IMG/VR virus record: IMGVR_UViG_3300037452_000138
Coordinates: 1 to 62,509 of that record
Length of the DNA: 62,509 bases
Direction: 5' to 3' (one strand)
Source: a virus
Lineage: Duplodnaviria > Caudoviricetes
Position 1 is the first letter of the stretch; each line of letters begins with the position of its first letter. Below are positions 402 through 22,851 of the stretch, piece by piece. The position numbers and the translations under genes are program-made. The notes under the pieces were generated by a model. That model searched no databases and was not told where the DNA came from. It saw nothing but the letters and a program-made list of their open reading frames with translations.

Positions 402-402
402 G

Positions 403-660: not shown

Positions 661-693
661 GCTTGATCGGCAAAGGAGTGCTTTGCCTTGCCG

Positions 694-1218: not shown

Positions 1219-1244
1219 GAAATGTTCCTGCTTGGGGGTGCGTC

Positions 1245-3566: not shown

Positions 3567-3615
3567 TTCGCTTACTCCGAATAGCATTAATATATATGTA
3601 TTACGGAGTTGTCAA

Positions 3616-5226: not shown

Positions 5227-5229
5227 CAC

Positions 5230-6802: not shown

Positions 6803-6912
6803 TGACGTACCTCAAAGTGCTTGCAATCGTCTTGCTAATCGACGGGACTTTTTTATGGATGCTATGGCGGCTGTTCGGAGGCTGCTTTGTAGGGCCGTGC
6901 TATCATGATTGA
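6802..6912 (+). CDS. Small membrane protein (36 aa)
   Basis: TGATG overlap; single hydrophobic stretch. Confidence 0.45.
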   Translation: MTYLKVLAIVLLIDGTFLWMLWRLFGGCFVGPCYHD

Positions 6913-7351
6913 GTTCGCCGTCGAAACCATCGGTGCGGTGTGGGAGCGCATGGACGTGGTTCGACGGCATTACGAGGAAATCGCGCAGTTCAAGGATGTG
7001 CAGCAACTTGACCCGGACTTCGAGGCTTACGATCGCATGGAGAAGGCGGGCAAGCTCTGGGTGATGACGGCGCGGAATGGCGACGACCTTGTCGGGTACA
7101 TCGTGATGTTTTTGGCGTTCGATCTGCACTATCGGAAACTGAAGCGGGCGACCGAGGATATTCATTTTATCCTGCCCGAGCACCGCAAGGGGCTTGTCGG
7201 GTACCAGATGCTGGCGAAGACCACACAGGCAATGCGGGACTTGGGGGTCCACACCGCGACTTTCAGGACCAAGGCCGACAACAGTCATGGGGTGCTGTTC
7301 GAGCGGCTGGGTGGAGTTTTGCACGATCTGGTGTATACCATCGTGCTGTAG
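6905..7351 (+). CDS. GNAT-family acetyltransferase-like protein
   Basis: LVGYIV...DIHFILPEHRKGLVG acetyl-CoA-binding-like motif; ends in LFERLG. Confidence 0.75.
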   Translation: MIEFAVETIGAVWERMDVVRRHYEEIAQFKDVQQLDPDFEAYDRMEKAGKLWVMTARNGDDLVGYIVMFLAFDLHYRKLKRATEDIHFILPEHRKGLVGYQMLAKTTQAMRDLGVHTATFRTKADNSHGVLFERLGGVLHDLVYTIVL

Positions 7352-7360
7352 GAGTGTGCC

Positions 7361-8677
7361 ATGGGCGATTTGGTCGGAATCGGCATCGATGCTTTAGCCA
7401 GCATATTCAGCAGTGGTGCGGGTGATGCAGCGGCGGGGCTAGGTACTGCCGCGGCGGATGTCGGTGCTGGCGCGGCCGGCGGGGGGATTGCCGATATCGT
7501 GGGTACCGGTGCAGGACTGGCTGGCGGTGCGACGGGGTTGGAAGGTACCCTGGCCAGCGCCGGCGGGCTCGGGCTGGCCGATGCTGCAGGAGCCGGGGGA
7601 TTGGGAGCCTTGGGTACTGCGGCTGATTTCCTGGCCGCCCCAGCGGCATCCGGATTGAGTGCCGCGGCCCTAACGCCCGGTATTTCGGGCGCTGCGGCGG
7701 ACACTGCGCTGACCAGCGCAGCCGATACCGGGCTCGCCAGCGGTGTCAGCGGCATTACCGGCTCGCCGTCGATCTCCAGTTTAGCGGGCGATCCCAGTGC
7801 TTTCCCCGGGGTGTCTTCGTCCTCCCTGTCGCCGAACGTCGCCAATGCGAACGCGGCTGCCCCAGGGTCTTCGGTGTTCAACACCGGCACCTCACCTGTG
7901 GCTGGCGTGAACCCTGCGGGAACGCCCAGCGTCAATCCGGGGGGAGCCAGTGCTGCGGGTGTATCGGCGCCCAGCGGCGTGACTGCCCCGACCGATGCGA
8001 CCGCCGCAGGCGTGCCCGGGAATGCTGCCGGTGGCGGGTCGCCTACCGGTACGCCGGCCGGCGGTTCAACCAGTATTTCCGATATGCTGAGCAATGCTGG
8101 CTCGAAAACCATGGATTCACTGACCAACAATCCCCTCGGCGTTGCGCTGGGAGCGGGCGGGCTCGGCTACAACATTTTAAAGGGTCAGCAGCAGACAAAG
8201 AACCAGAATGCGCTGTCGGCGGATGCCGCGCAGGCGACGGCGAACAGTAACAAGCTGACGGCGAGCGGCACCGATTTGCAGAAGTACCTGACGGACGGCA
8301 CCTTGCCGGCGAATTATCAGAAGATCGTCGATCAGTCGATCCAGGACGCCAAGACCACGGCGATCTCGAACGCAGCGCAGCAAGGGCTGCCGACCGATCC
8401 GACGCAGAACACGGCGCTGGCCGCCACGCTGGCCAAGATCGACGCTTCGAGGGCCGGCATGCAGGCGCAGGTAGCGCAGACCCTGTTCTCGTCAGGCAGC
8501 TCGCTGGTTAGTGCAGGCCAGTCGGCAGCTGGATTGTCCGGGAATCTCTACCAGACCCTGGTGCAGAACGACACCGCGCAGGCGGCGAACACCGGCAAGG
8601 CGATCGCCACGCTGGCGTCGGCGCTGAATGGCAAGTCGTCGGCGAATATCAACGGCACCAACGTCACGATCGGGTAA
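7361..8677 (+). CDS. Putative internal virion / ejection protein 1 (A/G-rich)
   Basis: Low-complexity hydrophobic A/G N-terminus and Q/A helical C-terminus; AGGAG SD; podovirus synteny. Confidence 0.6.
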   Translation: MGDLVGIGIDALASIFSSGAGDAAAGLGTAAADVGAGAAGGGIADIVGTGAGLAGGATGLEGTLASAGGLGLADAAGAGGLGALGTAADFLAAPAASGLSAAALTPGISGAAADTALTSAADTGLASGVSGITGSPSISSLAGDPSAFPGVSSSSLSPNVANANAAAPGSSVFNTGTSPVAGVNPAGTPSVNPGGASAAGVSAPSGVTAPTDATAAGVPGNAAGGGSPTGTPAGGSTSISDMLSNAGSKTMDSLTNNPLGVALGAGGLGYNILKGQQQTKNQNALSADAAQATANSNKLTASGTDLQKYLTDGTLPANYQKIVDQSIQDAKTTAISNAAQQGLPTDPTQNTALAATLAKIDASRAGMQAQVAQTLFSSGSSLVSAGQSAAGLSGNLYQTLVQNDTAQAANTGKAIATLASALNGKSSANINGTNVTIG

Positions 8678-8680
8678 CGC

Positions 8681-10378
8681 ATGGCCGACACGCAGCCGCA
8701 GGACACCGGGCAGTCGTCACCCGCGATCGCCGATCTGGCGGGCAGCGACGACAAGTCGATGTCCGGACTGGTGTCGAGCCTGACCGAGTTGCAGCGCAAG
8801 AAGGTCGGAAGCGATACCAAGCTCGAGGGCGAGTTCAACGTCGAGTCCGCGCAGGATCGCGCCCGCCGCGAACAGGCGTTCAAGGCGGAAGGTGTGGCGG
8901 CGTCCGAGATGCCGAAGGCATGGGACGCCGACAAGGAGCACAAGAAGTGGGAGACCAACCCGATCGAGGGGTTCGGGTCGGCCGGCGGCCTGTTCGCGAT
9001 GGTGGCGTCGGCCTTCACCAAGGCCCCGATGGAGAACGCCATCAACGGCATGGCGGGCGCGATCAACTCGATCAAGGAAGGCAACGAGGCTGGTTACACG
9101 CGGGCTTACGATGCGTTCAAGGAGAACGTGAAGCTGGCCGACCAGCGTTTCAAGACCCAGCACGAGCTTTACAACGACGCGCTGTCGCTCGGCACCGCCG
9201 ACATGGCGGCCTCGCAGGCCAAATTTCGCAACGCGGCAACCAAGTTCGGCGACAGCCAGATGCTGATGCTGGCCGAGCACGGCATGATCAAGGAAATCTA
9301 CGAGCTTCAGTCGGCGCGGGCGACAGCCAATGAGCAGATGATGAAGGCTGCCGACGCCATTGACCTGCATACCGTGCAAAAGGCCGCCGTCAACGCGATC
9401 AAGGCCAACCCGCCGGCGACCGGCGACCCCGTGCAGGACAAGATGATGCTGGCCGCGCAAATCCAGCGGGTGTACGACGCCAACGGCAAGTATGGCACCG
9501 CCGAGCAGGAGGCGGTCGGCCGGTACATGCAGGCCAATATGCAAAAGAGCCCGCAGGAGATCGCCGACGGGCTGGCCGAGATACACCAGAAATTCAGCGT
9601 CAAGGCGCCGAACATCCAGGGCTATCAGGAGGCACGCCAGGCTTACATGGATGCCCATGACGGTGCGATCCCGCCGGACGAGGATGCAAAATTGCTGCAG
9701 CAGTTCGGGCTGACCTACCGGCCGCCGGGGGCCACCGGCTCGGGCGGCGGGGCCTCGCTGACCAACGAGCGCGTCATCAACCGCGATGCCGAGGCGCACA
9801 AGCAGCAGATGGCCAAGGAGCATCCGGACTGGGACGAGGCCAAGCTGGAAGCCGACCGCGACAAGTATGTCAAGGAGCGCAAGATCGCGACCACCGCACC
9901 GACGGCAACCAATCTCGACACGATCCGCGGCAAGCAGGACCGCATCACCAACATGGATCACACCATCGACGAGGTCGAGGCGCTGCTGAAGAAGCACAAT
10001 GCGCTGACCGGTCTGGGTGGCAAGATCACCCGTCCGGCGGAAGTCGTCGGCAACATCTTCGGATCGAACGAGACCGACCGCAAGCAGTTCGAGCGTTACG
10101 TGGCAGAGTTGCAGGAGTGGGCACCGGCGGCTTTGAACGATCGCAACGGGCGTCCGCTGTCGTCGGAAGCGTCGAAAATCCAGACCATCATCGCAGGGCT
10201 TAACCTTGGAGACACGACCGCCAATACCGCTCGCGCCTATGCCGAGTTGCGCCCGCTTCTCAAGACGATCAAACAGCAGCTGGAGGCGCGCGGTGCGGGC
10301 GGGTCATCGCCGCCACCCGCGAAGTCGGAAGATACCGGCAAGGATGCCCCGTGGCTCCGGGATCCGGTGAAGCCGTGA
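8681..10378 (+). CDS. Putative internal virion / ejection protein 2
   Basis: 565 aa, helical, Cys-free, middle of three large genes. Confidence 0.6.
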   Translation: MADTQPQDTGQSSPAIADLAGSDDKSMSGLVSSLTELQRKKVGSDTKLEGEFNVESAQDRARREQAFKAEGVAASEMPKAWDADKEHKKWETNPIEGFGSAGGLFAMVASAFTKAPMENAINGMAGAINSIKEGNEAGYTRAYDAFKENVKLADQRFKTQHELYNDALSLGTADMAASQAKFRNAATKFGDSQMLMLAEHGMIKEIYELQSARATANEQMMKAADAIDLHTVQKAAVNAIKANPPATGDPVQDKMMLAAQIQRVYDANGKYGTAEQEAVGRYMQANMQKSPQEIADGLAEIHQKFSVKAPNIQGYQEARQAYMDAHDGAIPPDEDAKLLQQFGLTYRPPGATGSGGGASLTNERVINRDAEAHKQQMAKEHPDWDEAKLEADRDKYVKERKIATTAPTATNLDTIRGKQDRITNMDHTIDEVEALLKKHNALTGLGGKITRPAEVVGNIFGSNETDRKQFERYVAELQEWAPAALNDRNGRPLSSEASKIQTIIAGLNLGDTTANTARAYAELRPLLKTIKQQLEARGAGGSSPPPAKSEDTGKDAPWLRDPVKP

Positions 10379-13300
10379 GTGAATTAGGGCTCGACACCGA
10401 AAGCATGGCGTCCGGCGATCCCGGCGGTGGAGCCGCGCTCGATCTTGGCGAGCAGACCCTCGAAAGCAAGAACTATCCGAAGGTCGCGAATGAGAACGAT
10501 TGGCGGGCGTTGCCGCATGGAGCGACCTACCTTGATCCCGAAGGCAAGCAGCGCTTCAAGCCTATTCGCAATAAGGACGATTATCTCGGACTTCCGGAAG
10601 GGGCGGAATACGCCGATCCGGAAGGCAATGTTCGGACAAAGCCGAAATACGAGGGCATCGACTTCACCCCGCAGGCCTTGTTCGACATGGCGCATTCCGA
10701 CAAGGGGCGGAAGAAGGCGCTTGAAAAATACTACCCCGGCAAGGTCCGCGACGACCCGCAAGGCGGGTTTTTTATCGAGGACGACGGCGGCAAGCTGCGC
10801 AAGCCAGGCCGTGGAGCAAGTTCTGTCGGCGGCTTCCTCGCTTCGGAAACTGCTCCCTCCATACTGGCCGGTCTCGGCTCAATGGCGGGCGGGGCGGCGG
10901 GCACGGCCGTTGCTCCCGGCGTGGGCACGGCCGCAGGAGGCGCTGGGGGTGCAGCCCTTGGCGGCTATGTCGGATCGAAATTCAACGACACGATCTCGCA
11001 ACTGGCGGGTGTTTATGACGACGAGGGCGCCGATACGGCGGCAATGACCAGTGCCGCGTTTTCTGCTGTCGGTGATGTCGGTGGCCGGGCGCTGTCGGCA
11101 ATCCCGGCGGTTGCGAAAGGAACCGGGCAGCTGGCTGCTCGCGGCGCGGCAAAAACCGCCAACAAATTCCTCGGTACCGATCAGGAAGCACTGGAAACCG
11201 CGGTCCCGATCGCCGAGGCCGGGGAACAGCCGGGTAAAGGACCGCTAGGCTTATCCAAGGCTGGCACCGAGGTGTCGCCATCGGCGATTTTCAAATCGTC
11301 ACCGCATTTGACCAACGTCGCCGAAATCCTCGCGCAGAAATTCGACTCGTCCGACACCTATCTGATGCACGCCGAACGCTTCATGGATCAACGGGCCAAG
11401 GATATCCTCGCGCACAAGGATATCGGTGCCATCGTCGAAAGCATCGTCCATCCCAAAGCGGCGGTGCCGACGGAGGAAACCGGCTGGCTTCTCAAACGGT
11501 CGGCGGAAGCCAAGGCGGTGCAGCAGTCGGCCGAGCACGACCGCGCGCTGGCCGACGCGCTGGCAAACCGCAAGGCTGCCGTCGAAGACAAGTACAAGCC
11601 GGATATCGAGAAGTACCGTCAGCGCAACGAGAGCGTCGTGGTCACCGCCGAGCAGGCAAAAAAATCCGCCGATGAACTGGTACAGCAGGGGTTCAAGGAC
11701 ATCGAGAAACAGGCCGATGACGCCTTCAAGGTTGCCAAGGTCGGGCATAACAGCGGTGACCTCTGGCGCACGGTAGCGGAGAGTTTTGTCAAGCTGCGGC
11801 GCTCGATCGGCATGCGGGCCGAGAAAATGTACGGCGATGCCGAGACCGCGTCAGGAGGGTTGGTACCACAGGGTTCGAACGGCTTGTCTCGTCCCGCCGA
11901 GCAACTGCTTTCCGAGTTGCCCGAGGGCTTCGAGTCGCTGCACCCGTCGATAGTTAAAAAACTGCGCGACATGGCGGGCGTAAAAGACCCGAAGACTGGT
12001 GAGTGGGTCAAGGAGCCCGCCGATGCGTCGTGGGTGCAACTGCACAACCTGCGCACTCAGATCAGGCAGGACATCAAGTGGAATGACCTGACCTCGGACG
12101 TACGCAACGGCACCCTTAAATTCCTTGATGGCAAGATCAACGAAGTACTGCATCCTATCGAGGACTCGGCGGCGCCGGAGATCAAGGAAGCCTCGCGACT
12201 TTTGAAGCTGGCCGATGGTTTTTACCGCGAAAACATGGGTCCGCTGAATGACCGTCAATTGCGGACGCTGGTAAAGGCGCTTGAGACCGGCGGCGTGCAG
12301 GCCGATCCCAAGGCGCTGCTGAAGGTAGCGATCAGGGACGGCAAGACCGAGACGGCCAACGTCATTAAGAAAACGGTCGGCCCGCAGGTGTGGGACGCCA
12401 TGCGCGCGGCTGACGTCAAGGAGATGCTGGCGCAGTCGCAACAGATCGGCACCAAGGCATACGACGGTGTCGCGTTCGCCAAGCAGATACTCGACCGCAA
12501 GAAGAACGGCGTGCTCGACGTGCTGCACGGCGATGCCGGGGCGGCCAGGCTCGAACAGCAGGCGGCTTATGTCGAGAAGCTGCGGGGCAAGCTGGAAATA
12601 GAACCTCGTCCGGGCGATACCGCCAACGATATCATCCTGCGCGCCCGCGCCGCGGCGGCGGATGCGGAGGCAAAGGCGGCGTCCGACCCGCTGAAGGCCA
12701 TGCAAAACGAGATGCGCAAGGTGGAAGCGGCAACCAAGAAGGAATTTGCCGCGCAGCAGGCCGAGCGTACCGCTGCCGACCCGCTGGCGTTCCTCAACAA
12801 CGCTACCGTCGGCGCCCACGCCGCCGTGGACAAGATACTCGGAAATCCCGACCTGATCGTGGCTGCCGCCCGCTCGTTCGCCGGCGGCGAGCAGTCGCCC
12901 GAATTCAAGCTGCTGCGACAGGCGTGGACCGAGCGATTCATGCGCGAGACGCTGGAACCGGGAGAAAAACTGGCGAAGGTGAGCCCCGAAATCCAGGAAC
13001 TGATGTTCCCGGGCGTCACGCTCGATGACATGCACATGCTGGCCAAGGAGATGAAGCTGCTGATGAGCGGGCATACCATGCGCGGCGAGGATACTGCTGG
13101 CGGCATGATGGCGCAGGCGGCGGTTGAACACCCGTTCGGGCAGATAACGGGACTGGGTAAGCTGGCAGGACCGATAAAAATCGCCCCCGGTGCCAATTTC
13201 GCCGCTAGAGCGGGGTTGACCGCTTTTTACAACACGATCCGTGGGGTTTTGACCTCCCCGTCGACTTTGAGATGGCTGCGGAAAGGGCTACAGTCCCGCG

Positions 13301-13431
13301 ACCCCGCGGAGCGTGAGGCAGCTCGCGAGGGGCTGAAGGCCGCGCTACAGCGCGGAGGGGCCATGGGAGCGGCCATGGGACAAGGCGTAGGGGACTGGAT
13401 GGAAGAACCTGGAGCAGGAACATCACAATGA
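10375..13431 (+). CDS. Putative internal virion / ejection protein 3 (about 1018 aa)
   Basis: GTGA overlap; glycine-zipper segment GSMAGGAAGTAVAPGVGTAAGGAGGAALGG; long helical body. Confidence 0.6.
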   Translation: MSELGLDTESMASGDPGGGAALDLGEQTLESKNYPKVANENDWRALPHGATYLDPEGKQRFKPIRNKDDYLGLPEGAEYADPEGNVRTKPKYEGIDFTPQALFDMAHSDKGRKKALEKYYPGKVRDDPQGGFFIEDDGGKLRKPGRGASSVGGFLASETAPSILAGLGSMAGGAAGTAVAPGVGTAAGGAGGAALGGYVGSKFNDTISQLAGVYDDEGADTAAMTSAAFSAVGDVGGRALSAIPAVAKGTGQLAARGAAKTANKFLGTDQEALETAVPIAEAGEQPGKGPLGLSKAGTEVSPSAIFKSSPHLTNVAEILAQKFDSSDTYLMHAERFMDQRAKDILAHKDIGAIVESIVHPKAAVPTEETGWLLKRSAEAKAVQQSAEHDRALADALANRKAAVEDKYKPDIEKYRQRNESVVVTAEQAKKSADELVQQGFKDIEKQADDAFKVAKVGHNSGDLWRTVAESFVKLRRSIGMRAEKMYGDAETASGGLVPQGSNGLSRPAEQLLSELPEGFESLHPSIVKKLRDMAGVKDPKTGEWVKEPADASWVQLHNLRTQIRQDIKWNDLTSDVRNGTLKFLDGKINEVLHPIEDSAAPEIKEASRLLKLADGFYRENMGPLNDRQLRTLVKALETGGVQADPKALLKVAIRDGKTETANVIKKTVGPQVWDAMRAADVKEMLAQSQQIGTKAYDGVAFAKQILDRKKNGVLDVLHGDAGAARLEQQAAYVEKLRGKLEIEPRPGDTANDIILRARAAAADAEAKAASDPLKAMQNEMRKVEAATKKEFAAQQAERTAADPLAFLNNATVGAHAAVDKILGNPDLIVAAARSFAGGEQSPEFKLLRQAWTERFMRETLEPGEKLAKVSPEIQELMFPGVTLDDMHMLAKEMKLLMSGHTMRGEDTAGGMMAQAAVEHPFGQITGLGKLAGPIKIAPGANFAARAGLTAFYNTIRGVLTSPSTLRWLRKGLQSRDPAEREAAREGLKAALQRGGAMGAAMGQGVGDWMEEPGAGTSQ

Positions 13432-13634
13432 TTGAAAGCGAAACACAAACTTTGTTAGCACTAGGCTATACCGCAGAAGGCATAAGCGAAGTCGAAAGAG
13501 TTATGCGGGAAAATGGTGTGAGTGCATTGGTCGCCCACGAACTTATTTCGGCAGCCCCCGCGTATGACGCCGAAAGGGATAAGCACATTCCCGGCATAGG
13601 ACCGTATCTTCCCGAATTTGCCCGAAGGTGCTGA
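13428..13634 (+). CDS. Hypothetical protein (68 aa)
   Basis: ATGA overlap; AT-richer than its neighbours. Confidence 0.5.
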   Translation: MIESETQTLLALGYTAEGISEVERVMRENGVSALVAHELISAAPAYDAERDKHIPGIGPYLPEFARRC

Positions 13635-13850
13635 GTGACCGATTTTACCGACGAGATGGACAAACTGGCGGCCCAGCTCGCTCACGATGCCAATATGTCG
13701 GAAAAGGCGTTCGGTGACCGGCTCGACGCCTTCAAGGCGCTGATGCCCTACTACGCCCTGCTGAAGAAAAATGCGGGCAAGGACGATCCCGAGGACGGCG
13801 ACCTGCCGAATTTCGATAATTTCCGAAGCAATATCCACGCGGTCAAGTGA
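13635..13850 (+). CDS. Hypothetical protein (71 aa)
   Basis: Abuts the upstream stop; high GC3 codons. Confidence 0.65.
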   Translation: MTDFTDEMDKLAAQLAHDANMSEKAFGDRLDAFKALMPYYALLKKNAGKDDPEDGDLPNFDNFRSNIHAVK

Positions 13851-13862
13851 CGGAGTACACCG

Positions 13863-14144
13863 ATGGCACAAACCAATCCGGGGTTCGAAGTGGTCGGCGG
13901 CACCGAGGCCGAGCCGAAGCCGCCCGTCGATAACGGCGTGGCCGTCGCCATGCTCCAGATAGGGCTGAAGGCACTCGGCCAGCGGGCGCTGACCGCGGCA
14001 GCCGACCTGTTCACCCTGATCACCTGCGTCGGTGCCTGGTGGCTGTGGCGCATGACCCCGGATCCCAACCCGCAGCAGATCGTCCACAACTCGATTTTCG
14101 CGTTGTTCGTGCTGGCGGCCAATTACATCGTGAGGCGGAAATGA
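13863..14144 (+). CDS. Small two-TM membrane protein
   Basis: GGAG SD; two hydrophobic segments and a basic RRK end. Confidence 0.7.
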   Translation: MAQTNPGFEVVGGTEAEPKPPVDNGVAVAMLQIGLKALGQRALTAAADLFTLITCVGAWWLWRMTPDPNPQQIVHNSIFALFVLAANYIVRRK

Positions 14145-15532
14145 AGCGATTTATCAAGCGCCTCGCGCTCGGTTTTATCCTCGCACTGCCGTGGATCGGG
14201 GCGGCGTCGGCGCAGCAGGTCAATATGTACTGCGTCGTCAATCCGGCCTCGCCGCCGTACCAGTGGACGCCTTGCCAAACTTCGTCACCATTACCGACGA
14301 CGTCAGTCTCCCTCAACGGCATCGCGCAGGGTGTTTCCGCTCCCGGCGCCGCGGCGCGCGTGGCGCAGGAACCCACACAGCTGTTCTGGGACGATTTCGG
14401 CACCGGCACGCTGGACACCACCGCGAAGTGGACATCGCCCACCACTGGCGGCGGGGGCAACGCAACCGCTGCTTCGAACGCGGTGGGTTTTACCGCACTC
14501 GGTTCGGGCACAACCGCCGGCGGATGGTCGCTTTTATCGTCGCAGTTCTCGTTTCCCGGTAAAAATCCCTCGTGGAATTTTTTCCAGGAGCAAAACAACT
14601 TCGAATTTCCGGTGTTGCTGAATGCCGTCAGGTTCTGGGGTTTTGCTACATTCCCGGCAGCGCCCACCGCTGCCGCCCCCTACGCTGACGCAGTCGGATT
14701 TGAACTCGGCACCGACGGGCATCTTCGCGCGGTGATGTCGGCCAGTGCGGGCTCGCTGGCCGCCGGCACCAAGACGGTCATCGCCGACTTGTCCGTCGCT
14801 TGTCTATCGGCAAACCCCTATGGCGGGCCGCTGGGCACGGGCACGACGACCTCGGGCTGCGCGTCCGGTTTGATCGGTAAAGTGGCCCAGCCGCAGGATA
14901 ATGGCGTCCACAAGTACATCATCTATTTCCGCGGCGACAACACTTACTGGGCGATCGACGGCATCGACAACATCGTCGCGTTCACCATCACCGGCGCTCC
15001 CGGACCGAACGTCAACACGCTGCCCGTCGCCCATGCGGCGATCGCCAATACCGGCACCGGACCTACCGGCACCGCACTTCTGACTGTTAACCAGACGACG
15101 GTTGGCGACACCGGGCGCAACGAGATCAGGATATGCGACCCGACCAACCCGTGGAGGTGTGCTGCCGTCAGTTCGGGCGGCGCATTGTCGGTCTCGGCGG
15201 TAACGACCGCCAACACGGCAGCCTCGGCGCTTGCCGCCAACCTCGTGGTCAACAACGCGGCTTCCAGCCTGTATTCATTCAACGTGTCGGCGGATTCCAC
15301 GCTGTCGGCCGCCGCGTGGTGGATCATGGTCTACAACGCCACGACGCCTCCCGTGGACGGCGCGGTCACGCCTGCGCGCTGCTACGCCATGGCTTCGGGC
15401 AGCACGAGCTTTTCCGCGGCATTTCCCACCGGGCTTCCTTTCGGTACCGGCATCGTTATCGGCGTCAGCACCACCGGCTGCTTTACCAAGACCGCTTCGA
15501 CCCACGCCTTTATCGCGGGGGATTTCAAATGA
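14141..15532 (+). CDS. Fibre/spike-like protein 1 with Sec signal peptide
   Basis: MKRFIKRLALGFILALPWIGAASA-QQ; lectin-like beta domain; 8 Cys. Confidence 0.75.
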   Translation: MKRFIKRLALGFILALPWIGAASAQQVNMYCVVNPASPPYQWTPCQTSSPLPTTSVSLNGIAQGVSAPGAAARVAQEPTQLFWDDFGTGTLDTTAKWTSPTTGGGGNATAASNAVGFTALGSGTTAGGWSLLSSQFSFPGKNPSWNFFQEQNNFEFPVLLNAVRFWGFATFPAAPTAAAPYADAVGFELGTDGHLRAVMSASAGSLAAGTKTVIADLSVACLSANPYGGPLGTGTTTSGCASGLIGKVAQPQDNGVHKYIIYFRGDNTYWAIDGIDNIVAFTITGAPGPNVNTLPVAHAAIANTGTGPTGTALLTVNQTTVGDTGRNEIRICDPTNPWRCAAVSSGGALSVSAVTTANTAASALAANLVVNNAASSLYSFNVSADSTLSAAAWWIMVYNATTPPVDGAVTPARCYAMASGSTSFSAAFPTGLPFGTGIVIGVSTTGCFTKTASTHAFIAGDFK

Positions 15533-16644
15533 TCCGGTTGATCACGGGCCTGCTGCTTCTTTTTGCGGGTGCGGCTGAAGCGCAGCAGGGGCAGGCGGTC
15601 GGACCCACTGCGCCCTGTTCGGCCTTCGGTACGGCGAGCGGCACCTGCGCGCAGGGTAATGACATCCGATTCGGTGTCATCACCGCGCAAGGTCGCCTGA
15701 CCCTGACCGCCAACACCCCGGTGATGACGGCGACGGCCTCCGCGCAAACCACCCTGCGATACGACTGCTACCTCGGCAACACCGTGCCCTACTTCAACGG
15801 CACGGTCGACACGCTCGACACCGTTGCATCGTGCGAGGTCACCGATGCGATGGTGTCGGCAGCCAGTGCGGGGCAAGTGGTCAACAACAACGTGTACGAC
15901 GTATGGTGGGTTACCGGCGGTGCGAATAAAATCTGCCTGGCCATGTCGGCAGCGGTTGGCGGCGGTGGTGGCTGGTCTGCCGATACCGGCGGTTCAAATA
16001 CGGTACGCGGCACCGGCTACACGCAGCTGGATCGTATAACCCGGCCTTACATCACCAATAAAAACTCGATTACCAACTGCTTCAACGGAGCCACTAACTA
16101 CGGTCCGGTAAGCGCTAATCAAGGCACTTACCTCGGGACGGTTTATGCCAGTGCTAACGGGCAGATCAGCTGGACACTGGGAGCTTCGGCATCAGGCGGC
16201 ACCGCTGCCGTGCTCGGTGTTTGGAATATGTACAACCGCGTGAATGTTTTTACGTCCGTAACCGATAGTGGAGCTGCCTATACCTACACCACGGCGACCA
16301 TACGGCAGGCGCGGGCCAGTGCGGGCAATCAGGTGACCTGTGTTACCGGACTGCAAGAAGATGCTTTTACCGCAACATATCAGGTCAATAACCATCCCGT
16401 GGCAGCTATCGCCGCAAATATGAAAATCGGCGTAGGGCTAGATACAACTTCCGCTTTTACGTCGCCATTTTGGACAACTACCTCAATGGCGGCTAATTCG
16501 GAAGCTGAAGGAGCCATGGCTTTTTTAACTTCAACTGCCATTGGATTGCATGTCATTTCCGCCAATGAAAACGGAGATGGTGTAAACGCTAACACCTTCG
16601 ACAACGACTCGCTGAACACTTTCAGCGTGAACCTGAGAATGTGA
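15529..16644 (+). CDS. Fibre/receptor-binding-like protein 2 with Sec signal peptide
   Basis: MIRLITGLLLLFAGAAEA-QQ; paralogous to the C-terminal half of the next gene; 7 Cys. Confidence 0.75.
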   Translation: MIRLITGLLLLFAGAAEAQQGQAVGPTAPCSAFGTASGTCAQGNDIRFGVITAQGRLTLTANTPVMTATASAQTTLRYDCYLGNTVPYFNGTVDTLDTVASCEVTDAMVSAASAGQVVNNNVYDVWWVTGGANKICLAMSAAVGGGGGWSADTGGSNTVRGTGYTQLDRITRPYITNKNSITNCFNGATNYGPVSANQGTYLGTVYASANGQISWTLGASASGGTAAVLGVWNMYNRVNVFTSVTDSGAAYTYTTATIRQARASAGNQVTCVTGLQEDAFTATYQVNNHPVAAIAANMKIGVGLDTTSAFTSPFWTTTSMAANSEAEGAMAFLTSTAIGLHVISANENGDGVNANTFDNDSLNTFSVNLRM

Positions 16645-16646
16645 CG

Positions 16647-19343
16647 ATGAAAAAAATCCTTGCCCTGATCGCGCTGCTTCTTGCTCCCTCGGCGCTTGCC
16701 CAGAACGTCCAGTATTCCGGCACGATTACCCGCAACCAGATCCCGGTATGGGTCACCAACGGGGTGATCGGCGCCGGCACCTCGGCCGCCGACAGCCCGA
16801 TCTCGTCGATCGGCGTGACCAACGAGGGCGGCGCCGGGTTCTGCGTGTCGAGCCAGCGGCAGACCGCGGCGGGGCGCAACCAGCTTTGCCTGTCGGCCTC
16901 GACCACTGGCCCCGCGACGATCAGTGTGCAGAACTATGGCACCGCGGCCCCGCAACCCCTCCAGTACGTCATCAACGGCACCGTCGTCACAATCCCGACT
17001 GGCGGCGGCTCGTTCATTTTCGGCAACCCGCCCTTCACAACCGGCGACGTGCCGTGCTTCGTCAATACCTCTGGCCTCTTGCAGGACTGCGGGCTGGCAG
17101 TTAACAGCGGCACCGTCACGACGGGCGTTTGGAACGGCACCGCTGTGGCCGTCGGATTTGGCGGCACGGGCAGCAACAATGCTGCGGGAGCCCGGACCAA
17201 TCTCGGCCTCCTGTCGATGGCGACCCAGGCTTCCAACAGCGTGTCGATCACTGGCGGCGCAATTACCGGCATGGCCTCGCCGGTCGCTGCTTCCGACGTC
17301 GCCACTAAATCCTACGTCGATGCCTCGTCCAGCGGCCTCAACATCCTGGCTCCCAGCAGGCTGGCTACGGCAGCTGCCCTCCCGAACACCCCGACCTATT
17401 CCAACGGCACCGCCGGCGTCGGCGCGACGCTGACTGCCGGTTCGAACACGACGTTGACCGTGGACGGCACCGTTGCGAATCTCAACGACGTCGTTCTTGT
17501 CAAGAACCAGGTATCGACTTTCCAGAACGGTATCTATCAGGTCACGACCGCGGGCGGCGGCGTGCCGTGGGTGCTGACCCGGGCTACCTACTTCGACACC
17601 GCCGCGAAGATGAAGGTGGGCTCGTACACCTTCATCACTGCCGGCTCGGTCAACATCAACTCGTCATACACCCTGCAATCGACCGTGGTAACGGTCGGCA
17701 CCGACGCCCTGACTTTCGTGCAATTTTCGGCCGGCAATGCTGGCACGGTGACTAGTGCTACGATTGCGGCGGGCACCGGCATCTCGGTCACCGGTACCTG
17801 CACGATCACCACCAGCGGCACCTGCACCATCGCCAATACCGGCGTTACCTCGGTCACGGGCGGTGTCGGATTGCTGGGCGGGGCCATCACCACAACCGGG
17901 ACGCTGTCGGTCGATCCGACCATCATCAACTCGCAGGGCGGACGGCTGACACTGGTGTCCGGGCAGCCTTATATGACCGCCGATGCCGTCGGCGCGCAGA
18001 CGATCTATTATGCGCCCGACACTGGGCAATTCGTTCCGGTCTATAGCGGTAGTGCGTGGACGCTCAACCAGTTCACGTCAGGCAACACCGACCAGGTTGG
18101 TTTGTCACTGGCGTTGGGCGGGTCCGCCAGCTGGGCCGCCAACAGCATCTTCGACGTGTTCGCCGTGATTAACAGCGGATCGCTGGTGCTCGCCACCCGT
18201 GCATGGGACGCGAGCATGCTGCCGACTACGTCGCAGATCGCCAACAACGCAACGATCACGACCGGCACCACGCCGACGGCGTGGACCAATCCCAATAATG
18301 CTTTTGACGGCATCGTGGTGAAAAGCAGCACGACGGCGGCCAATATCCAGCCGGGTAATGCCGGAACCGCCAACTGCCTGGGACAGAATTTCGGGTCGCC
18401 GCAGACGGTTTCGCAGGTGGTGATAACGGCGCCGACCGATAAACAGCTAGTCGGTAGCGCCAGCACGACGGACGTCCGCACCTACGCATCTTCGGACGGC
18501 ACTAATTTTTATCTGATGTCGGTTAACTGGGTTGACGATCTCTCGATAGGTGCTGGTTACACACTCCCGATCCCCGTCGGCACCCAGCTTCCGTTCCAAT
18601 ACTGGCGGACATGCATCGATAGCAACTTCAAAGGGGGCGGTCCGTATAATGTGTGGGTCGCGCAAATCCAGTACAACACCACGGCTGCGCCTTCCACGCG
18701 CCGCCTGACGCATTTCGGCGGCATCCTGGTCAACGATGCGTCGATGACAGCACGTGTGTCATCGAGCACAACGATTACCACTGGACAATACCAGGGCACT
18801 TATCTGGGCTCATTCCAGACCGATGCTGCCTCTGCCGGGCAAGTGTCGGCTTATTTCTCCTACGGTCCGAGCCGGGTGTTCAACATCTGGAATGCCTACC
18901 GACAAACCGACATCACGCTACAAGCCGGTTTGGTCGCAGACACCAACACGTCTTACGTGCTTACCAACCAACTGTTCAGTCCGTGCGAGAACTCGACATT
19001 CAGCGTCGTGCCGTTCCTCGGCCTGGCGCAGCAGTCGATTACGGCACAGGTACAGCGGGCGGTGGCGCTGAATTCTATTACGCCCAATGCTTCCGCGGCT
19101 TATGAAGTAGGCATCGGAGTGGACACCATCACGGCCTTATCAGGGACCGACGCCAGCACTAATTTCGATGTGCTCAACATTGTTCACGGGCTTCCGATCC
19201 CATCGAACGTGGTGCTTCCTCCGTACTTCGGCACTCACACGCTGACTTGCATCGAACGCGCCGGGAACGGCTCTGCCGGCGGCACGGTCACGTTGTTCAC
19301 CGGGGCAAGAAACACTTTCCTGCAAGTGAAATATAAGGGGTAA
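16647..19343 (+). CDS. Long tail-fibre-like protein 3 with Sec signal peptide
   Basis: MKKILALIALLLAPSALA-QN, followed by fibre motifs GGTG...ARTNLGL, DVATKSYVD, VLVKNQ...QNGIY and GTVTS, plus a discoidin-like insert; 10 Cys. Confidence 0.8.
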   Translation: MKKILALIALLLAPSALAQNVQYSGTITRNQIPVWVTNGVIGAGTSAADSPISSIGVTNEGGAGFCVSSQRQTAAGRNQLCLSASTTGPATISVQNYGTAAPQPLQYVINGTVVTIPTGGGSFIFGNPPFTTGDVPCFVNTSGLLQDCGLAVNSGTVTTGVWNGTAVAVGFGGTGSNNAAGARTNLGLLSMATQASNSVSITGGAITGMASPVAASDVATKSYVDASSSGLNILAPSRLATAAALPNTPTYSNGTAGVGATLTAGSNTTLTVDGTVANLNDVVLVKNQVSTFQNGIYQVTTAGGGVPWVLTRATYFDTAAKMKVGSYTFITAGSVNINSSYTLQSTVVTVGTDALTFVQFSAGNAGTVTSATIAAGTGISVTGTCTITTSGTCTIANTGVTSVTGGVGLLGGAITTTGTLSVDPTIINSQGGRLTLVSGQPYMTADAVGAQTIYYAPDTGQFVPVYSGSAWTLNQFTSGNTDQVGLSLALGGSASWAANSIFDVFAVINSGSLVLATRAWDASMLPTTSQIANNATITTGTTPTAWTNPNNAFDGIVVKSSTTAANIQPGNAGTANCLGQNFGSPQTVSQVVITAPTDKQLVGSASTTDVRTYASSDGTNFYLMSVNWVDDLSIGAGYTLPIPVGTQLPFQYWRTCIDSNFKGGGPYNVWVAQIQYNTTAAPSTRRLTHFGGILVNDASMTARVSSSTTITTGQYQGTYLGSFQTDAASAGQVSAYFSYGPSRVFNIWNAYRQTDITLQAGLVADTNTSYVLTNQLFSPCENSTFSVVPFLGLAQQSITAQVQRAVALNSITPNASAAYEVGIGVDTITALSGTDASTNFDVLNIVHGLPIPSNVVLPPYFGTHTLTCIERAGNGSAGGTVTLFTGARNTFLQVKYKG

Positions 19344-19348
19344 ATGAA

Positions 19349-20104
19349 ATGACTTTTTCTCTCTTGTGGCTTCCCGGCATCCTGCGAGCCGCCGGGCTCA
19401 TCGTGAACGAAGTGCCGGGCTGGCAGAACCGCGGCCATGGTGACGAGGGCAAGGTGCTTGGCGTGTTGTGTCATCACACCTGCGGGCCGCTACATGGCGA
19501 TCTGCCCGATCTCAACGTGCTCATTGACGGCCGCCCCGATCTGGGCGGTCCGCTCTGCAATCTTGGCCTTGGCCGTTCCGGGCAGTACTGGATGATCGCG
19601 GCCGGCAAGGGCTGGCACGCCGGCGGCGGCAACTGGCAGGGCATCACCGACGGCAACGCACATCTGATCGGAATCGAGGCCGAGAACATCGGCACCAGTG
19701 ACCGGCAAGGCAACCCGCTCGAGCCGTGGCCGGCGGTGCAGATGGATGCCTACAAGCGGGGCTGCGCGGCCATCCTTCGGCACATCGGGGCGCTGCCAAT
19801 CATGTGCGCCGGGCACAAGGAGTACGCCCTGCCGCACGGCCGCAAGGACGATCCGAATTTCGACATGGTGGCCTTCAGGCGCGACGTGGCCGCCTTGATG
19901 GCGCTGCCTGCTGGCGTCTCACCAGTTGCAGTGCCTTCCCCCGTTGCGACGCCTTCCTCGGTCGCCCCACCCGTGGTTTCCAGCCCACCGCCTGCGTCCC
20001 CGCCGCACACACCCCTTCCCAACACACCGACAAAGCCCGCACAAACCGACGTGGATACCGCCTTCGACGCCGCCGCGTCCGATACACCCGGCAGCACAGG
20101 CTAG
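19349..20104 (+). CDS. Endolysin, N-acetylmuramoyl-L-alanine amidase (Amidase_2-like)
   Basis: HHT, WHAG, IGIEAEN and GHKEYA..RKDDP motifs; Pro-rich tail. Confidence 0.9.
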   Translation: MTFSLLWLPGILRAAGLIVNEVPGWQNRGHGDEGKVLGVLCHHTCGPLHGDLPDLNVLIDGRPDLGGPLCNLGLGRSGQYWMIAAGKGWHAGGGNWQGITDGNAHLIGIEAENIGTSDRQGNPLEPWPAVQMDAYKRGCAAILRHIGALPIMCAGHKEYALPHGRKDDPNFDMVAFRRDVAALMALPAGVSPVAVPSPVATPSSVAPPVVSSPPPASPPHTPLPNTPTKPAQTDVDTAFDAAASDTPGSTG

Positions 20105-20154
20105 ACGCTCCCTCGTAATTGTGGCAGGTTCCGACAACCTAGGAGATATGTCAG

Positions 20155-20520
20155 ATGGCGTTATCCACCGAGACTGTTGGAAGGCTGCTCGCCTCCGGGC
20201 GCAATTACGTCAGCATCGTCGTCGGTTTCGTCGGTGGTATCGGCCTGATGTCGGCCTCCCAGCAGCAGGGGCTGAAAGACGCCTTCAACCAGATATTCGA
20301 CGGGCTCAGCCAGGTCGTCCATGGCGCGACGTCGCTATGGCAAATCCTGATCGTGGCGTTCCCGGTCATCGGCGTGGTCATGGCCCAGCTCGCCAGCCGC
20401 AGCGCCAAGGTCACCAGCCAGGCCGCCGCCGTGGTCGCTGCGGTCAAAGACCCCAATACCCCGATCCCCGCCGAAGCGAAAACATCCATCGTCACCGCCG
20501 CCAACGAGGTCACCAAATGA
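20155..20520 (+). CDS. Putative holin (two TM segments)
   Basis: AGGAG SD; two hydrophobic segments; follows the endolysin. Confidence 0.55.
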   Translation: MALSTETVGRLLASGRNYVSIVVGFVGGIGLMSASQQQGLKDAFNQIFDGLSQVVHGATSLWQILIVAFPVIGVVMAQLASRSAKVTSQAAAVVAAVKDPNTPIPAEAKTSIVTAANEVTK

Positions 20521-20891
20521 AAAAGCTCCTGCTGATTATCCCGCTCGCGCTGTCGCTCGGCGCCTGCGCCTCCCTGCAAACCGCGTGGTCGGTCGTCACC
20601 GGGGTCTCGGTGTCGCCAACCCAGATACTCGTGGCCGCCAATGCCTTCGATGCCGGCGAGGCCAGCGCCACCCAGTACCTGCTGTTTTGCAAGGCCAACC
20701 CGGCCCAGTCGGTCTGTGCCCTGAAAACTCGGCAGGCCGTGGTTTCCGCGGTGCGCGCCGGCCGCGTCACCCGCAACCAGCTCGAGCCGTACATCGTCTC
20801 GAACACCGCTGGTCCCGCCGCCCTCTACAACGCCCTGGTGGCGACGGTCACCGCCCTCAAGTCCCAGATCCCCGCAGGAGCCGCCCAATGA
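20517..20891 (+). CDS. Lipoprotein, spanin-like candidate
   Basis: MKKLLLIIPLALSLGA-C lipobox; within the lysis cassette. Confidence 0.7.
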   Translation: MKKLLLIIPLALSLGACASLQTAWSVVTGVSVSPTQILVAANAFDAGEASATQYLLFCKANPAQSVCALKTRQAVVSAVRAGRVTRNQLEPYIVSNTAGPAALYNALVATVTALKSQIPAGAAQ

Positions 20892-21190
20892 CCATAGCAA
20901 TCACCGCCCTGCTCTCGCTGATCGAGCAGCTTCTGCCGCTATTGGGCACGGGTGCGAACGTCGTGCTGGTCGACTCGATCCTCAACGCACTCACCCAGTT
21001 CCTGCCGTTCATCGTCAACGAGATCGCCTCGCTGTACCAGCCGGTCAAGAACATCATCGCGGCACTCAGCGCCTCGCCGGCGGCCAATGCCGACCAGCTG
21101 GCCACCCTGCAGGTGCTGGACAAGCAGGTCGATGCCGCGTTCGACGCGATCGCCTCACAGACCGATAGCGATGGAACGGCGCCTGCGTAG
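20888..21190 (+). CDS. Amphipathic helical protein of the lysis cassette (100 aa)
   Basis: AGGAG SD, ATGA overlap; L/I-rich helices. Confidence 0.7.
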   Translation: MTIAITALLSLIEQLLPLLGTGANVVLVDSILNALTQFLPFIVNEIASLYQPVKNIIAALSASPAANADQLATLQVLDKQVDAAFDAIASQTDSDGTAPA

Positions 21191-21221
21191 AATCGTTGAT
21201 TTCCCGCCGGGGTAGGTGAGA

Positions 21222-21548
21222 ATGGCACGAAATCCGAGACGCCGCATGAACGAATTCAGCGACAATGGGAATGCTGAATCAGAAAGCCACTGGCACGTCA
21301 ACCGGGGGATACCGGTCGTCTGGCTGGTCGGCAGTGTGTTCATCGGGATCGCCCAGTTCGGCGGCTTCGTCTGGTACGCCTCCCAGTTCAATACCCGGGT
21401 CGACGTCGTTGAAAAAACCGTGGCGCTGATCGCCCCGCAAGGCGAGCGGCTGACCCGCGTCGAGGAAAGCCTGAAAGGCGTCAAGGAAGGCATCGGCGAT
21501 CTGAAAATCGACATGAAGACCCTTCTGACACAAGCCAAGGCGCGGTAA
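21222..21548 (+). CDS. Single-TM plus coiled-coil protein
   Basis: Hydrophobic segment followed by heptads (RLTRVEESLKGV); start uncertain. Confidence 0.6.
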   Translation: MARNPRRRMNEFSDNGNAESESHWHVNRGIPVVWLVGSVFIGIAQFGGFVWYASQFNTRVDVVEKTVALIAPQGERLTRVEESLKGVKEGIGDLKIDMKTLLTQAKAR

Positions 21549-21551
21549 GTA

Positions 21552-22025
21552 ATGCCAACCAGTTCCAGCAACGGAGACTGGATACGCACCATGATCGGCG
21601 CACTAAGCGCCATCATCGTCACCATGGGAAGTCTCTACTCGGTTGTCATTATTCCGCAGACGGCGCGGATCGAGAAGCTGGAGATCGGGCGGGAAAAGGA
21701 CAGCGACCAACTCGCCAAACTGTACACTTCGATCCAGACCAACGACGAGTACAAGAAAACCGTCGCGACCGAATTCCTGTGGATCAGAAGCGACATTGCA
21801 AAAAACATCGGACGGATCGATCATATTGAAGGGGAGCAGCTACGACGCACCTCTGCTGTGGCGATTGTGGCATCGCTTGAAGCGCGGATGGATCGAATCG
21901 AACGCCGCAACGAGGAACAGGACCGGCGATCCGCACCGACGATCATCGAGGAAGTGAAGACGCTGCGTTCGGAACTCGAAAGTTTGCGCCAGCGAATCAT
22001 GGTTCCGATAACGACGAGCAAATGA
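21552..22025 (+). CDS. Single-TM plus coiled-coil protein
   Basis: N-terminal TM segment, charged heptads. Confidence 0.6.
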   Translation: MPTSSSNGDWIRTMIGALSAIIVTMGSLYSVVIIPQTARIEKLEIGREKDSDQLAKLYTSIQTNDEYKKTVATEFLWIRSDIAKNIGRIDHIEGEQLRRTSAVAIVASLEARMDRIERRNEEQDRRSAPTIIEEVKTLRSELESLRQRIMVPITTSK

Positions 22026-22026
22026 C

Positions 22027-22212
22027 ATGCCGTTTGCAGCCAAATGCTCAGCGATTGTCGCGCATAACGGCATCGTCAAGGTTCTGCTGACCGTCGAATC
22101 CGCACCCAACTCCCAGGACGAACACCTGCTTTGCAATCTGCTGAAGTCTCGTGTAAATTTCGAGCAGGACGACACGGTCGAGATAACCTTCAGAAAACTA
22201 CCCCGTTCGTAA
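22027..22212 (+). CDS. Hypothetical protein (61 aa)
   Basis: Fills the gap between co-oriented genes. Confidence 0.45.
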   Translation: MPFAAKCSAIVAHNGIVKVLLTVESAPNSQDEHLLCNLLKSRVNFEQDDTVEITFRKLPRS

Positions 22213-22230
22213 CTACTTCAGGAGCATCAC

Positions 22231-22851
22231 ATGAAGTATCTGGTTTCCGCACTGATCCTGCTCGGCCTTGTTTCCTCGGCCGAAGCCAAGTCCCGACATC
22301 ATGCTGCTTCCGGCCTGCATCCGATGTGCAACATCACGATGCCCTGCGAGATCCCGGCGACGGTCGCAGCGGTCAGGGAGACCCAGCGCGTGGCGCGCGG
22401 CAAGTACGTGGCCCGGCAGATGGGGTTCGGCGGGGTCGCTCCGCTCAAACACCGGAAGGAGGCGATGCATCATTCCACCCGATTACGACAGGGCCTTTAT
22501 AACGCACGACCCCGGCCTCACACCCAGCAGGCCGGGGCCACGCGCGTTGCTTCGCAGATCGTAGCACACCCGGCGGGGTGTCCGTCGCGGGCGTTTTGCG
22601 GTTGCGGCGCTGCGGTCCGCCTGCTGGGGGCACCGGTTCGCGCGTTGTGGCTGGCCGCCAACTGGTTTCGGTTCCCCCGTGTAGCGCCGGCTCCTGACAC
22701 GGCCGGCGTCCGCCGGCATCACGTCATCGCCTTGATCGAGCATCGGCACGGCAGCGTGTGGCTGGTCTACGACGCCAACAGCGGCGGCCACGCCACCCGC
22801 ATCCACGAGGTCGATATTTCCCGGTATACGATCGTCAATCCGAGGACTTAG
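22231..22851 (+). CDS. Secreted protein with CHAP/NlpC-P60-like Cys-His domain
   Basis: Signal peptide ending SAEA; AFCGCG...AANW...HHV...YDANSG. Confidence 0.6.
   Translation: MKYLVSALILLGLVSSAEAKSRHHAASGLHPMCNITMPCEIPATVAAVRETQRVARGKYVARQMGFGGVAPLKHRKEAMHHSTRLRQGLYNARPRPHTQQAGATRVASQIVAHPAGCPSRAFCGCGAAVRLLGAPVRALWLAANWFRFPRVAPAPDTAGVRRHHVIALIEHRHGSVWLVYDANSGGHATRIHEVDISRYTIVNPRT

Follow-up and report, generated by a model that had tools for sequence, protein, structure and literature searches.

In the 62,509 bp DNA of an uncultured tailed phage (IMGVR_UViG_3300037452_000138, a complete IMG/VR virus record with exact direct terminal repeats of 127 bp), which in its entirety we call the window, three consecutive genes upstream of the endolysin encode large proteins that begin with what look like Sec signal peptides and carry cysteines mostly as neighbouring pairs. 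We refer to these genes as A, B and C. This podovirus-like phage has no close relative in culture. From comparisons of their sequences, Sec export and oxidative folding of the three proteins are well supported. Going one step further, we lean slightly towards reading A, B and C as Sec-exported, disulfide-bonded receptor-binding fibres that would join the tail once the holin and lysis merge the two compartments. A more general proposition is that widespread uncultured podoviruses perform their last assembly step outside the cytoplasm, with fibres that are secreted by Sec, oxidized in the periplasm and picked up at the holin breach; on this one we find ourselves evenly divided.

The three genes and their parts are the following (aa, amino acids; residues of C are numbered from the ATG):

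14141-15532, plus strand: gene A, 463 aa, 8 Cys (31, 45, 221, 240, 332, 340, 414, 447)
14141-14212, plus strand: leader of A, MKRFIKRLALGFILALPWIGAASA, then QQ; predicted cleavage before Q25
A after the leader: Cys-pair N-module (C31-C45), ConA-like lectin/glucanase-fold domain (~80-345), beta-sandwich (~368-463)
15529-16644, plus strand: gene B, 371 aa, 7 Cys (30, 40, 80, 102, 136, 184, 271)
15529-15582, plus strand: leader of B, MIRLITGLLLLFAGAAEA, then QQ; predicted cleavage before Q19
B after the leader: short Cys-loop (C30-C40), then a conserved domain of ~320 aa from the QGRLTLT motif
16647 (ATG) or 16641 (GTG) to 19343, plus strand: gene C, 898 aa from the ATG, 10 Cys (66, 81, 137, 148, 385, 393, 577, 656, 780, 868)
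16647-16700, plus strand: leader of C, MKKILALIALLLAPSALA, then QN; predicted cleavage before Q19
16701-17216, plus strand: N-terminal module of C, residues 19-190, with Cys pairs 66-81 and 137-148
17214-17846, plus strand: central fibre domain of C, residues ~190-400, with the motifs GGTG..NLGL, DVATKSYVD and VLVKNQ..NGIY
17937-19343, plus strand: distal part of C, residues ~430-898, variable among relatives

An initial annotation, made from the sequence alone, had already described three coupled, leader-bearing genes here. Its coordinates, AxA leaders and translational coupling (starts and stops overlap as ATGA, ATGA and GTGA along A, B and C) all hold, and so do its counts of 8, 7 and 10 Cys, as opposed to 1 in the major capsid protein and none in the proteins encoded at 7361-13431. 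The fibre motifs that it listed for the third protein (GGTG..ARTNLGL, DVATKSYVD and VLVKNQ..NGIY) are indeed found in C. It had gone on to propose that the fibres are exported and oxidatively folded, and this proposal is backed, as far as sequences can tell, by leader conservation and by a pairing of Cys that is restricted to leader-bearing proteins.

Secretion leaders and paired cysteines

Leaders were called with a home-made rule (not SignalP), combined with reading by eye. The rule asks for a basic residue before an uncharged window of 10 residues with a mean hydropathy of at least 1.6, followed by small residues at positions -3 and -1. Its background rate is about 6%: it flags 12 of the 194 six-frame open reading frames (ORFs) of at least 100 aa in the window, and 45 of 792 ORFs of at least 150 aa in 76 other phage loci. 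At that rate, three consecutive flagged ORFs would arise by chance about 2 times in 10,000. The leaders of A, B and C are 24, 18 and 18 residues long, respectively, and of the n-h-c type. In A, KR..KR is followed by 17 uncharged residues and a site between ASA and Q; in B, a single R is followed by 13 uncharged residues, with an E at -2 and a site between AEA and Q; and in C, KK is followed by 15 uncharged residues and a site between ALA and Q.

Protein searches returned 148 homologs of A, 271 of B and 1124 of C, and the best 120 of each were analysed. The initial annotation had named homologs as the place where the leaders should be looked for, and there they are: 97/120 (A), 83/120 (B) and 117/120 (C) of these best homologs are flagged. 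The 37 unflagged homologs of B are mostly truncated gene calls that begin inside the conserved domain, and leaders are visible in P0190 and P0208 though the rule missed them. The 23 unflagged homologs of A look truly leaderless, and have other N-terminal parts. Across homologs the leaders diverge widely in sequence and yet retain their features. The median leader length is 19-22 residues; Ala is found at -1 in 86/97, 71/83 and 90/117 of the flagged homologs of A, B and C, and Gln at +1 in 60/97, 46/83 and 88/117 of them.

For C, we can look much further. A profile of its N-module (the first 177 aligned positions), compared with 1.84 billion cluster representatives at 50% identity, matches 1032 of them at E<=1e-3, 658 at E<=1e-10 and 182 at E<=1e-30. 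Among the 150 matches listed, the module is always at the extreme N-terminus (profile position 1-9 on residue 1-31). The rule flags a leader in 115 of 116 further representatives of the module, and the remaining one has a leader by eye. Conservation of this kind suggests that the leaders of A, B and C are real and selected.

Do the cysteines tell the same story? The mature parts of the leader-bearing homologs of A, B and C contain 1.5-1.6% Cys, and the even/odd/zero counts of Cys are 86/11/0 for A, 67/14/2 for B and 111/6/0 for C. Thus, 264 of the 295 leader-bearing homologs that have any Cys have an even number of them (binomial test on even/odd counts, p<=2e-9, relatedness ignored). The further C N-module representatives behave in the same way (115 sequences, 1.56% Cys, counts of 103/12/0). 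The 23 unflagged A homologs have 0.38% Cys and counts of 10/9/4. As a leaderless control, we scanned IMG/VR for the central fibre domain of C, which resulted in 80 loci from many kinds of phage. A leader at the first start is seen in only four of these loci (L002-L005); at internal starts the rule raises seven more flags, none of them leader-like. The 58 complete leaderless fibres with this domain have 0.19% Cys and even/odd/zero counts of 13/30/15, and among the 61 complete central-domain ORFs, the three with leaders carry 10, 18 and 8 Cys.

The individual pairs can also be followed through the alignments. In C, the pair C66-C81 is present in 40/40 aligned sequences, and for C137-C148 we observe both residues in 32 sequences, neither in 8, and a single one in none. 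In the B family, C80 and C102 are both present in 23 sequences, both absent in 11 and never found singly, and C136 and C184 are gained or lost jointly; C271 is unpaired and specific to this genome, and the two nearest relatives of B have 8 Cys. In the A family, all four Cys pairs are missing in 12/12 leaderless members, and both partners of a pair are present in 7-12 of the 29 leader-bearing members. By these comparisons, even Cys counts and covarying pairs appear to be confined to the leader-bearing members of the families.

Could these N-termini be something other than export signals? One can imagine a hydrophobic structural helix, or one embedded in the tail, on proteins that fold and attach in the cytoplasm and whose cysteines oxidize after release. 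There is a precedent of sorts in phage Milano, with virion disulfide networks in proteins that the consulted part of the report does not describe as exported (PMC10811340). For a buried helix, however, there would be no need of 18-24 residues with a basic n-region, or of a Gln preceded by small residues at -3 and -1, and these features are all kept despite sequence drift. In addition, leaderless fibres with the same domain are almost free of Cys, and an even bias together with covarying neighbour pairs fits the oxidative folding of each chain and not a late cross-linking. We consider such an explanation improbable.

Fibre identity and proposed attachment to the virion

The profile of C finds chain orf22 of the PDB entry 9efk with an E-value of 5e-42 (profile positions 195-488 on orf22 residues 220-534) and, via the GGTG..NLGLG repeat, the SU10 putative tail fibre 7z47 with an E-value of 1.7e-6. 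The entry 9EFK is the portal-tail complex of the Legionella phage LME-1, and the part of the report that we draw on describes the tail fibre as six trimers that touch adaptor and nozzle, as in T7 (PMC12407071). The central domain of C also belongs with PHROG families 30390, 2647 and 17264, and tblastn finds it in 23 cultured-phage records, in proteins that are mostly labelled tail fibre and with no more than 21% of C covered. Two cultured-phage fibres that share this domain have leaderless N-termini. Homologs of C keep its first 40-47% and exchange their C-termini, which contain pectate-lyase, beta-helix, Collar, Peptidase_S74 and LamG domains (PF12708, PF07484, PF13884, PF13385, PF13229); this kind of swapping looks like the usual repertoire of receptor-binding proteins. 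Taken together, the homology to a solved virion fibre and the modular swapping of C-termini indicate that C is fibre-like.

B shares in this modularity. Most of its 271 homologs cover 80-90% of B and have unrelated N-termini. Elsewhere, the B-type domain is the C-terminus of longer leader-bearing fibre-like proteins, some of them with C-type or GGTG-type N-termini (the C-type N-terminus is joined to a B-type domain in P0177, P0208 and P0216). The distal part of C itself opens with GGRLTLVSG, which resembles the start of the B domain (GRLTL).

For A, the AlphaFold2 model has a mean predicted local distance difference test score (pLDDT) of 79.3, with values above 90 over most of residues 80-330. 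A Foldseek comparison of this model to PDB reports GH16 glucanases and L-type lectins with probability 1.00, E-values from 2.6e-6 to 7e-5, and template modelling (TM) scores by target of 0.4-0.65. The catalytic motif of GH16 is ExDxxE. The sequence of A has no E.D..E and no E[ILVF]D, and it is therefore better called lectin-like than a glucanase. Its fold also resembles many uncharacterised Caudovirales proteins. Sequence families add little: Pfam reports no family for A, B or C (there is a single sub-threshold Fn3 match for A), PHROGs report nothing for A and B, profiles of A and B match no PDB sequences, and residues 1-195 of C find in the ESM Atlas only viral clusters without names, at scores of 0.90 or less.

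The lectin/glucanase fold of A, and the pectate-lyase or beta-helix depolymerase-type domains in which relatives of C end, would also suit proteins that are exported and disulfide-bonded but are free envelope or post-release factors instead of virion parts. Such factors could work from the periplasmic side, binding or cleaving the polysaccharide that serves as receptor, and so block superinfection and keep progeny off debris, or they could clear exopolysaccharide around the burst. All the evidence for export fits them equally well. Moreover, A-C adjoin the lysis cassette, no resemblance to a known tail-binding domain could be detected in the N-module of C, and the leaderless protein encoded at 5230-6000 could in principle be the sole virion appendage. 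On the other hand, free factors have no evident need for a conserved N-terminal part of ~400 aa with homology to the shaft of a virion fibre. A kept N-terminus with swapped C-termini is a hallmark of docking to a conserved virion site. The position of the genes is that of a T7-like fibre gene, and it recurs in contigs without a homolog of the window capsid. If the fibres were to be found elsewhere in the window, where would they be? The ~40 larger ORFs besides A-C have no convincing match to a fibre or spike family, the weak exceptions being fibre-labelled matches at 61596-62507 (E 3e-5) and 2003-2944 (E 1.5e-3), and the 5230-6000 protein shows no domain swapping. On balance, free factors are possible but rather unlikely. 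The initial annotation had itself offered an alternative of this sort, in which the proteins are displayed on the cell as adhesins or receptor blockers; that alternative is possible, but the conserved ~400-aa N-terminal part and the position of the genes fit it less well.

If A-C are instead late-joining fibres, as we favour, events could unfold as follows. The three proteins would be translated late, from an operon shared with the lysis genes and those of the internal virion proteins. The host Sec machinery would carry them across the inner membrane, and signal peptidase I would cut after AxA, leaving an N-terminal Gln. In the oxidizing periplasm, neighbouring Cys would be joined, giving four pairs in A, three pairs and one free Cys in B, and five pairs in C. 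Fibre-less particles would assemble in the cytoplasm. The holin would then open the inner membrane, endolysin and spanin would complete lysis, and the particles would meet the fibres, which would attach to them as the final assembly step. By eye, the N-terminus of the endolysin has neither a leader nor a segment like those of signal-anchor-release (SAR) endolysins, and therefore a hole-forming holin is expected. Work on lambda suggests that such holes would be large enough for particles and periplasm to mix, and work on P22 and T4 that finished particles can still take up fibres or spikes as a last addition. The actual export, the cleavage, the role of Dsb, the attachment to the virion and its timing are steps that we infer. 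The initial annotation had the fibres dock via the leaderless 5230-6000 protein, an idea that finds no support so far; what we observe is only that this protein is conserved at full length, with 62-68% identity and without domain swapping, in 5/5 relatives (L083-L087).

Several observations weigh against fibres that join the tail. A profile search of PDB finds no solved tail-binding domain for residues 1-190 of C. Tail attachment of C is not shown by homology because the alignment to orf22 starts at residue 220 of the latter. For comparison, the leader-bearing fibre of another contig (L003) matches 9efk over the central domain only. The missing N-terminal match lowers the case for a full-length membership of C in the LME-1 fibre family, not that for a fibre function. 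The full-length monomer model of C is poor, with a mean pLDDT of 55.4; this was too low for a fold search, and the model was dropped from it. B has an odd number of Cys (7). The homologs are related to each other, and so the counts of Cys and of leaders are not independent events; the use of 50%-identity representatives and the variety of Cys totals (4 to 28) lessen this concern but do not remove it. There is no cultured relative (the terminase has 36.5% identity at best, and A is unmatched among 50,697 phage records). Attachment after the merger of compartments would have to compete with dilution at lysis. And virion disulfides are possible without export, as in the sheath and baseplate network of phage Milano, as far as the consulted part of that report goes (PMC10811340).

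The late operon, related phages and the host

Outside A-C, the features of the window relevant here are:

2003-2944: SU10-type adaptor (PF24175)
3616-5226: putative nozzle gene product (the name is tentative)
5230-6000, plus strand: leaderless protein of 256 aa, after the putative nozzle gene
7361-13431, plus strand: three large proteins (438, 565 and 1026 aa) with 0 Cys each; ejection-like or internal-virion by position
13863-14144, plus strand: small protein of 93 aa that has two hydrophobic segments and whose stop codon overlaps the start of A
19349-20104, plus strand: endolysin (Amidase_2; PF01510, E 1.1e-12; phrog_880, E 3.1e-40)
20155-20520, plus strand: holin candidate with two hydrophobic segments, named by inspection
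20517-20891, plus strand: lipoprotein with the lipobox LSLGAC, a spanin-type outer-membrane component by position; named by inspection
53009-54925: large terminase, best cultured match at 36.5% identity
60543-61583: major capsid protein (phrog_9953), 1 Cys

A primase-helicase and a weak PolA match are also recognised in the window, in which no tRNA genes were found. Compared with the 50,697 phage records, neither the 5.2 kb region of A-C, as DNA, nor protein A has a match. The label of ejection proteins for the products of 7361-13431 is given by position and composition only; they have no Pfam match and one weak PHROG tape-measure match (phrog_167). Pfam, PHROG and PDB searches give no match for the 5230-6000 protein, the 3616-5226 protein has no match in a PDB sequence search, the 93-aa protein has no Pfam or PHROG match, and the holin candidate and the lipoprotein (20155-20891) have no family matches.

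The ATG of the endolysin is found 5 nt past the stop of C. In the region 13000-22500 there is 1 promoter-like site versus 2.7 expected from shuffled sequence, and there are 6 terminator-like sites versus 8.1 expected. The GC content of A-C is 0.61-0.63, the same as that of the flanks. Because there is no excess of promoter or terminator sites and the GC content is flank-like, we regard A-C as part of the late operon and not as an insert.

Some other genes in this part of the genome are worth recording. Just past the lysis genes, 22231-22851 (plus strand) encodes a protein of 206 aa that has 5 Cys and starts with the leader MKYLVSALILLGLVSSAEA. Neither Pfam nor PHROGs assign it to a family, the related contig L082 has a homolog at the same place (15595-16170), and the protein is probably a further exported one. 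An acetyltransferase gene (6905-7351, plus strand; phrog_1249, E 5.8e-12) lies after the putative nozzle region and ahead of the genes for the internal virion proteins. Two minus-strand ORFs within the plus-strand structural module, 694-1218 and 2922-3587, look by eye like HNH/AP2-type homing endonucleases and coincide with a dip in GC content (0.52 at 2001-4000).

We examined six related contigs (L082-L087). In L083-L087 the capsid protein is 90-93% identical to that of the window, the C N-module is 51-65% identical, and the distal parts are exchanged. A conserved capsid next to a divergent C is as would be expected of host-range determinants. The order of ejection-like proteins, 93-aa two-helix protein, leader-bearing fibres and lysis genes is found in L083 and L086, and also in L082, where the small two-helix protein was missed in the gene list. 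The proteins of 7361-13431 are kept upstream of the fibres in L082, L083 and L086. Homologs of the 93-aa protein, at 59-67% identity, occur in L083, L086 and L087, in the first two immediately upstream of the leader-bearing fibre genes; this protein could be a membrane protein of the ejection complex or a factor linked to fibre export. L085 and L086 also contain homologs of the holin and lipoprotein block. Two relatives, L084 and L085, have the fibre-plus-lysis block away from the ejection genes, upstream of an ORF of 637 aa that is a putative terminase. These two contigs also have a resolvase/invertase-like gene (N-terminus MIL.Y.RVSTADQ; L084 6763-7461, L085 6699-7394) ~2.5 kb upstream of the C-like fibre gene.

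Beyond these close relatives, a homolog of the window capsid is found in 0/4 records with leader-bearing fibres, two of which are complete. In L003 (complete, GC content 0.40) and L005 (a fragment, ~49% complete, GC content 0.58) the leader-bearing fibres come after Cys-free ejection-like proteins, and in L003 they precede a lysis block that contains a lipoprotein. Leader-bearing fibres in contigs without a homolog of the window capsid imply that the trait is not the quirk of one lineage. As a separate observation, G007 (L129-L131), a complete 60 kb phage with a GC content of 0.40 in which no homolog of the window capsid was found, has at ~47.8-56.1 kb a leader-bearing fibre of 1208 aa with 18 Cys, and, in a cluster upstream of its packaging genes, six more leader-flagged ORFs of at least 200 aa, including one of 835 aa (10 Cys) and one of 350 aa (8 Cys).

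Bacterial surface proteins typically carry signal peptides and Cys pairs, and a leader-bearing B-type domain occurs in a small integrated element of Bradyrhizobium. Might A-C then be host-derived cargo ("morons"), such as secreted adhesins with a role outside the phage life cycle? The region has no insert-like promoter, terminator or GC content, and the starts and stops overlap within the operon. A search for the C N-module across 185,579 prokaryote species, each represented by a single genome, gave 58 pattern matches, none of which was confirmed. The family is kept in 5/5 related phage genomes, and C is homologous to virion fibres. We disfavour host cargo and give it very little weight.

The B domain, searched with a narrower alignment in the same species genomes, gives 20 loci, mostly in metagenome-assembled genomes of Alphaproteobacteria, and including a Bradyrhizobium isolate, Rhodopseudomonas, Reyranella and Tardiphaga. 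One of these, L107 (Bradyrhizobium sp. 190), has at ~1-8903 a small integrated element with an integrase, a VapE-like primase and a ClpP-like protease. Its fibre has 527 aa, a TTG-started leader MKIISLIAAALLWAGAAFA followed by QG, the motif GGTA..TSLGL, and a B-type C-terminal domain; the element may be satellite-like, bringing its own leader-bearing fibre. For the window phage, the lipoprotein of the lysis block implies a diderm host. Together with the B-domain loci it is a hint, short of an assignment, that the host is probably alphaproteobacterial.

Significance and comparison with known systems

To our knowledge, the virions of tailed phages are built wholly in the cytoplasm, from fibres without signal peptides, and the 58 leaderless control fibres agree with this picture. 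In a literature search at the level of listings, we found no description of Sec leaders on the fibres of tailed phages; what the search covered of PMC3556154, PMC12656738, PMC12923769 and PMC12210884 concerns spanins or the cargo signals of extracellular contractile injection systems (eCIS), which are not relevant to fibre leaders. With no precedent found, tail fibres that combine a secretion leader with oxidative folding would seem to be new.

The family of fibres with a leader and paired Cys is large, at least 658 clusters at 50% identity for the C N-module alone (E<=1e-10). If its members are virion parts, the maturation of the virion would be partly periplasmic, a two-compartment assembly route for tailed phages, and infectivity would depend on the Sec, signal peptidase (LepB) and Dsb systems of the host. 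This would also give a reason why such fibres may fail in cytoplasmic expression for engineering or structural work, and a leader together with an even number of Cys would become a signature by which receptor-binding proteins could be annotated in viromes from soil and freshwater. If they are not virion parts, they would be secreted, fibre-like effectors with which phages act on the envelope, a large class that has gone unrecognised. In both cases the finding would be new.

How do A-C compare with what is known? Agrobacterium phage Milano is a tailed alphaproteobacterial phage whose virion proteins are locked by many disulfides (PMC10811340). The Milano bonds link subunits of the sheath and baseplate which, in the consulted part of that report, are not described as exported, whereas here the predicted bonds are between neighbours in the same chain and go together with a signal peptide.

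With the T7-type fibres (LME-1 orf22, T7 gp17), the central domain of C shares homology to residues 220-534 of orf22, and in both the distal ends are modular and variable. The T7 gp17 gene comes after the genes for the internal or ejection proteins, and so does gene C. A, B and C differ from T7-type fibres in their Sec-type leaders and paired Cys, and C differs from orf22 in its tail-proximal N-terminal domain, which is unrelated in sequence. The two cultured-phage fibres and the 58 complete metagenomic fibres with the central domain of C all have leaderless N-termini, unlike C.

Phages do export proteins before lysis, among them spanins, SAR endolysins and exclusion lipoproteins such as Llp of T5. 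A-C would share with these a late use of Sec, and the lipoprotein of the window (20517-20891) is of that kind. The known cases are small lysis or exclusion factors, while A-C are large and fibre-like, with the architecture of receptor-binding proteins.

The "tailing" of P22 by its tailspike and the in vitro attachment of fibres to T4 are late and separable additions, of the kind that the proposed mechanism needs. In P22 and T4 both partners are cytoplasmic and there is no change of compartment, unlike what we propose for A-C.

The nearest functional analogue of A-C, without homology, is pIII of the filamentous Ff phages, a receptor-binding virion protein that has a cleavable signal peptide and folds with disulfides in the periplasm. 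pIII is anchored in the inner membrane, and its virion is extruded without lysis; here, a tailed, DNA-filled capsid would be assembled in the cytoplasm and released by lysis.

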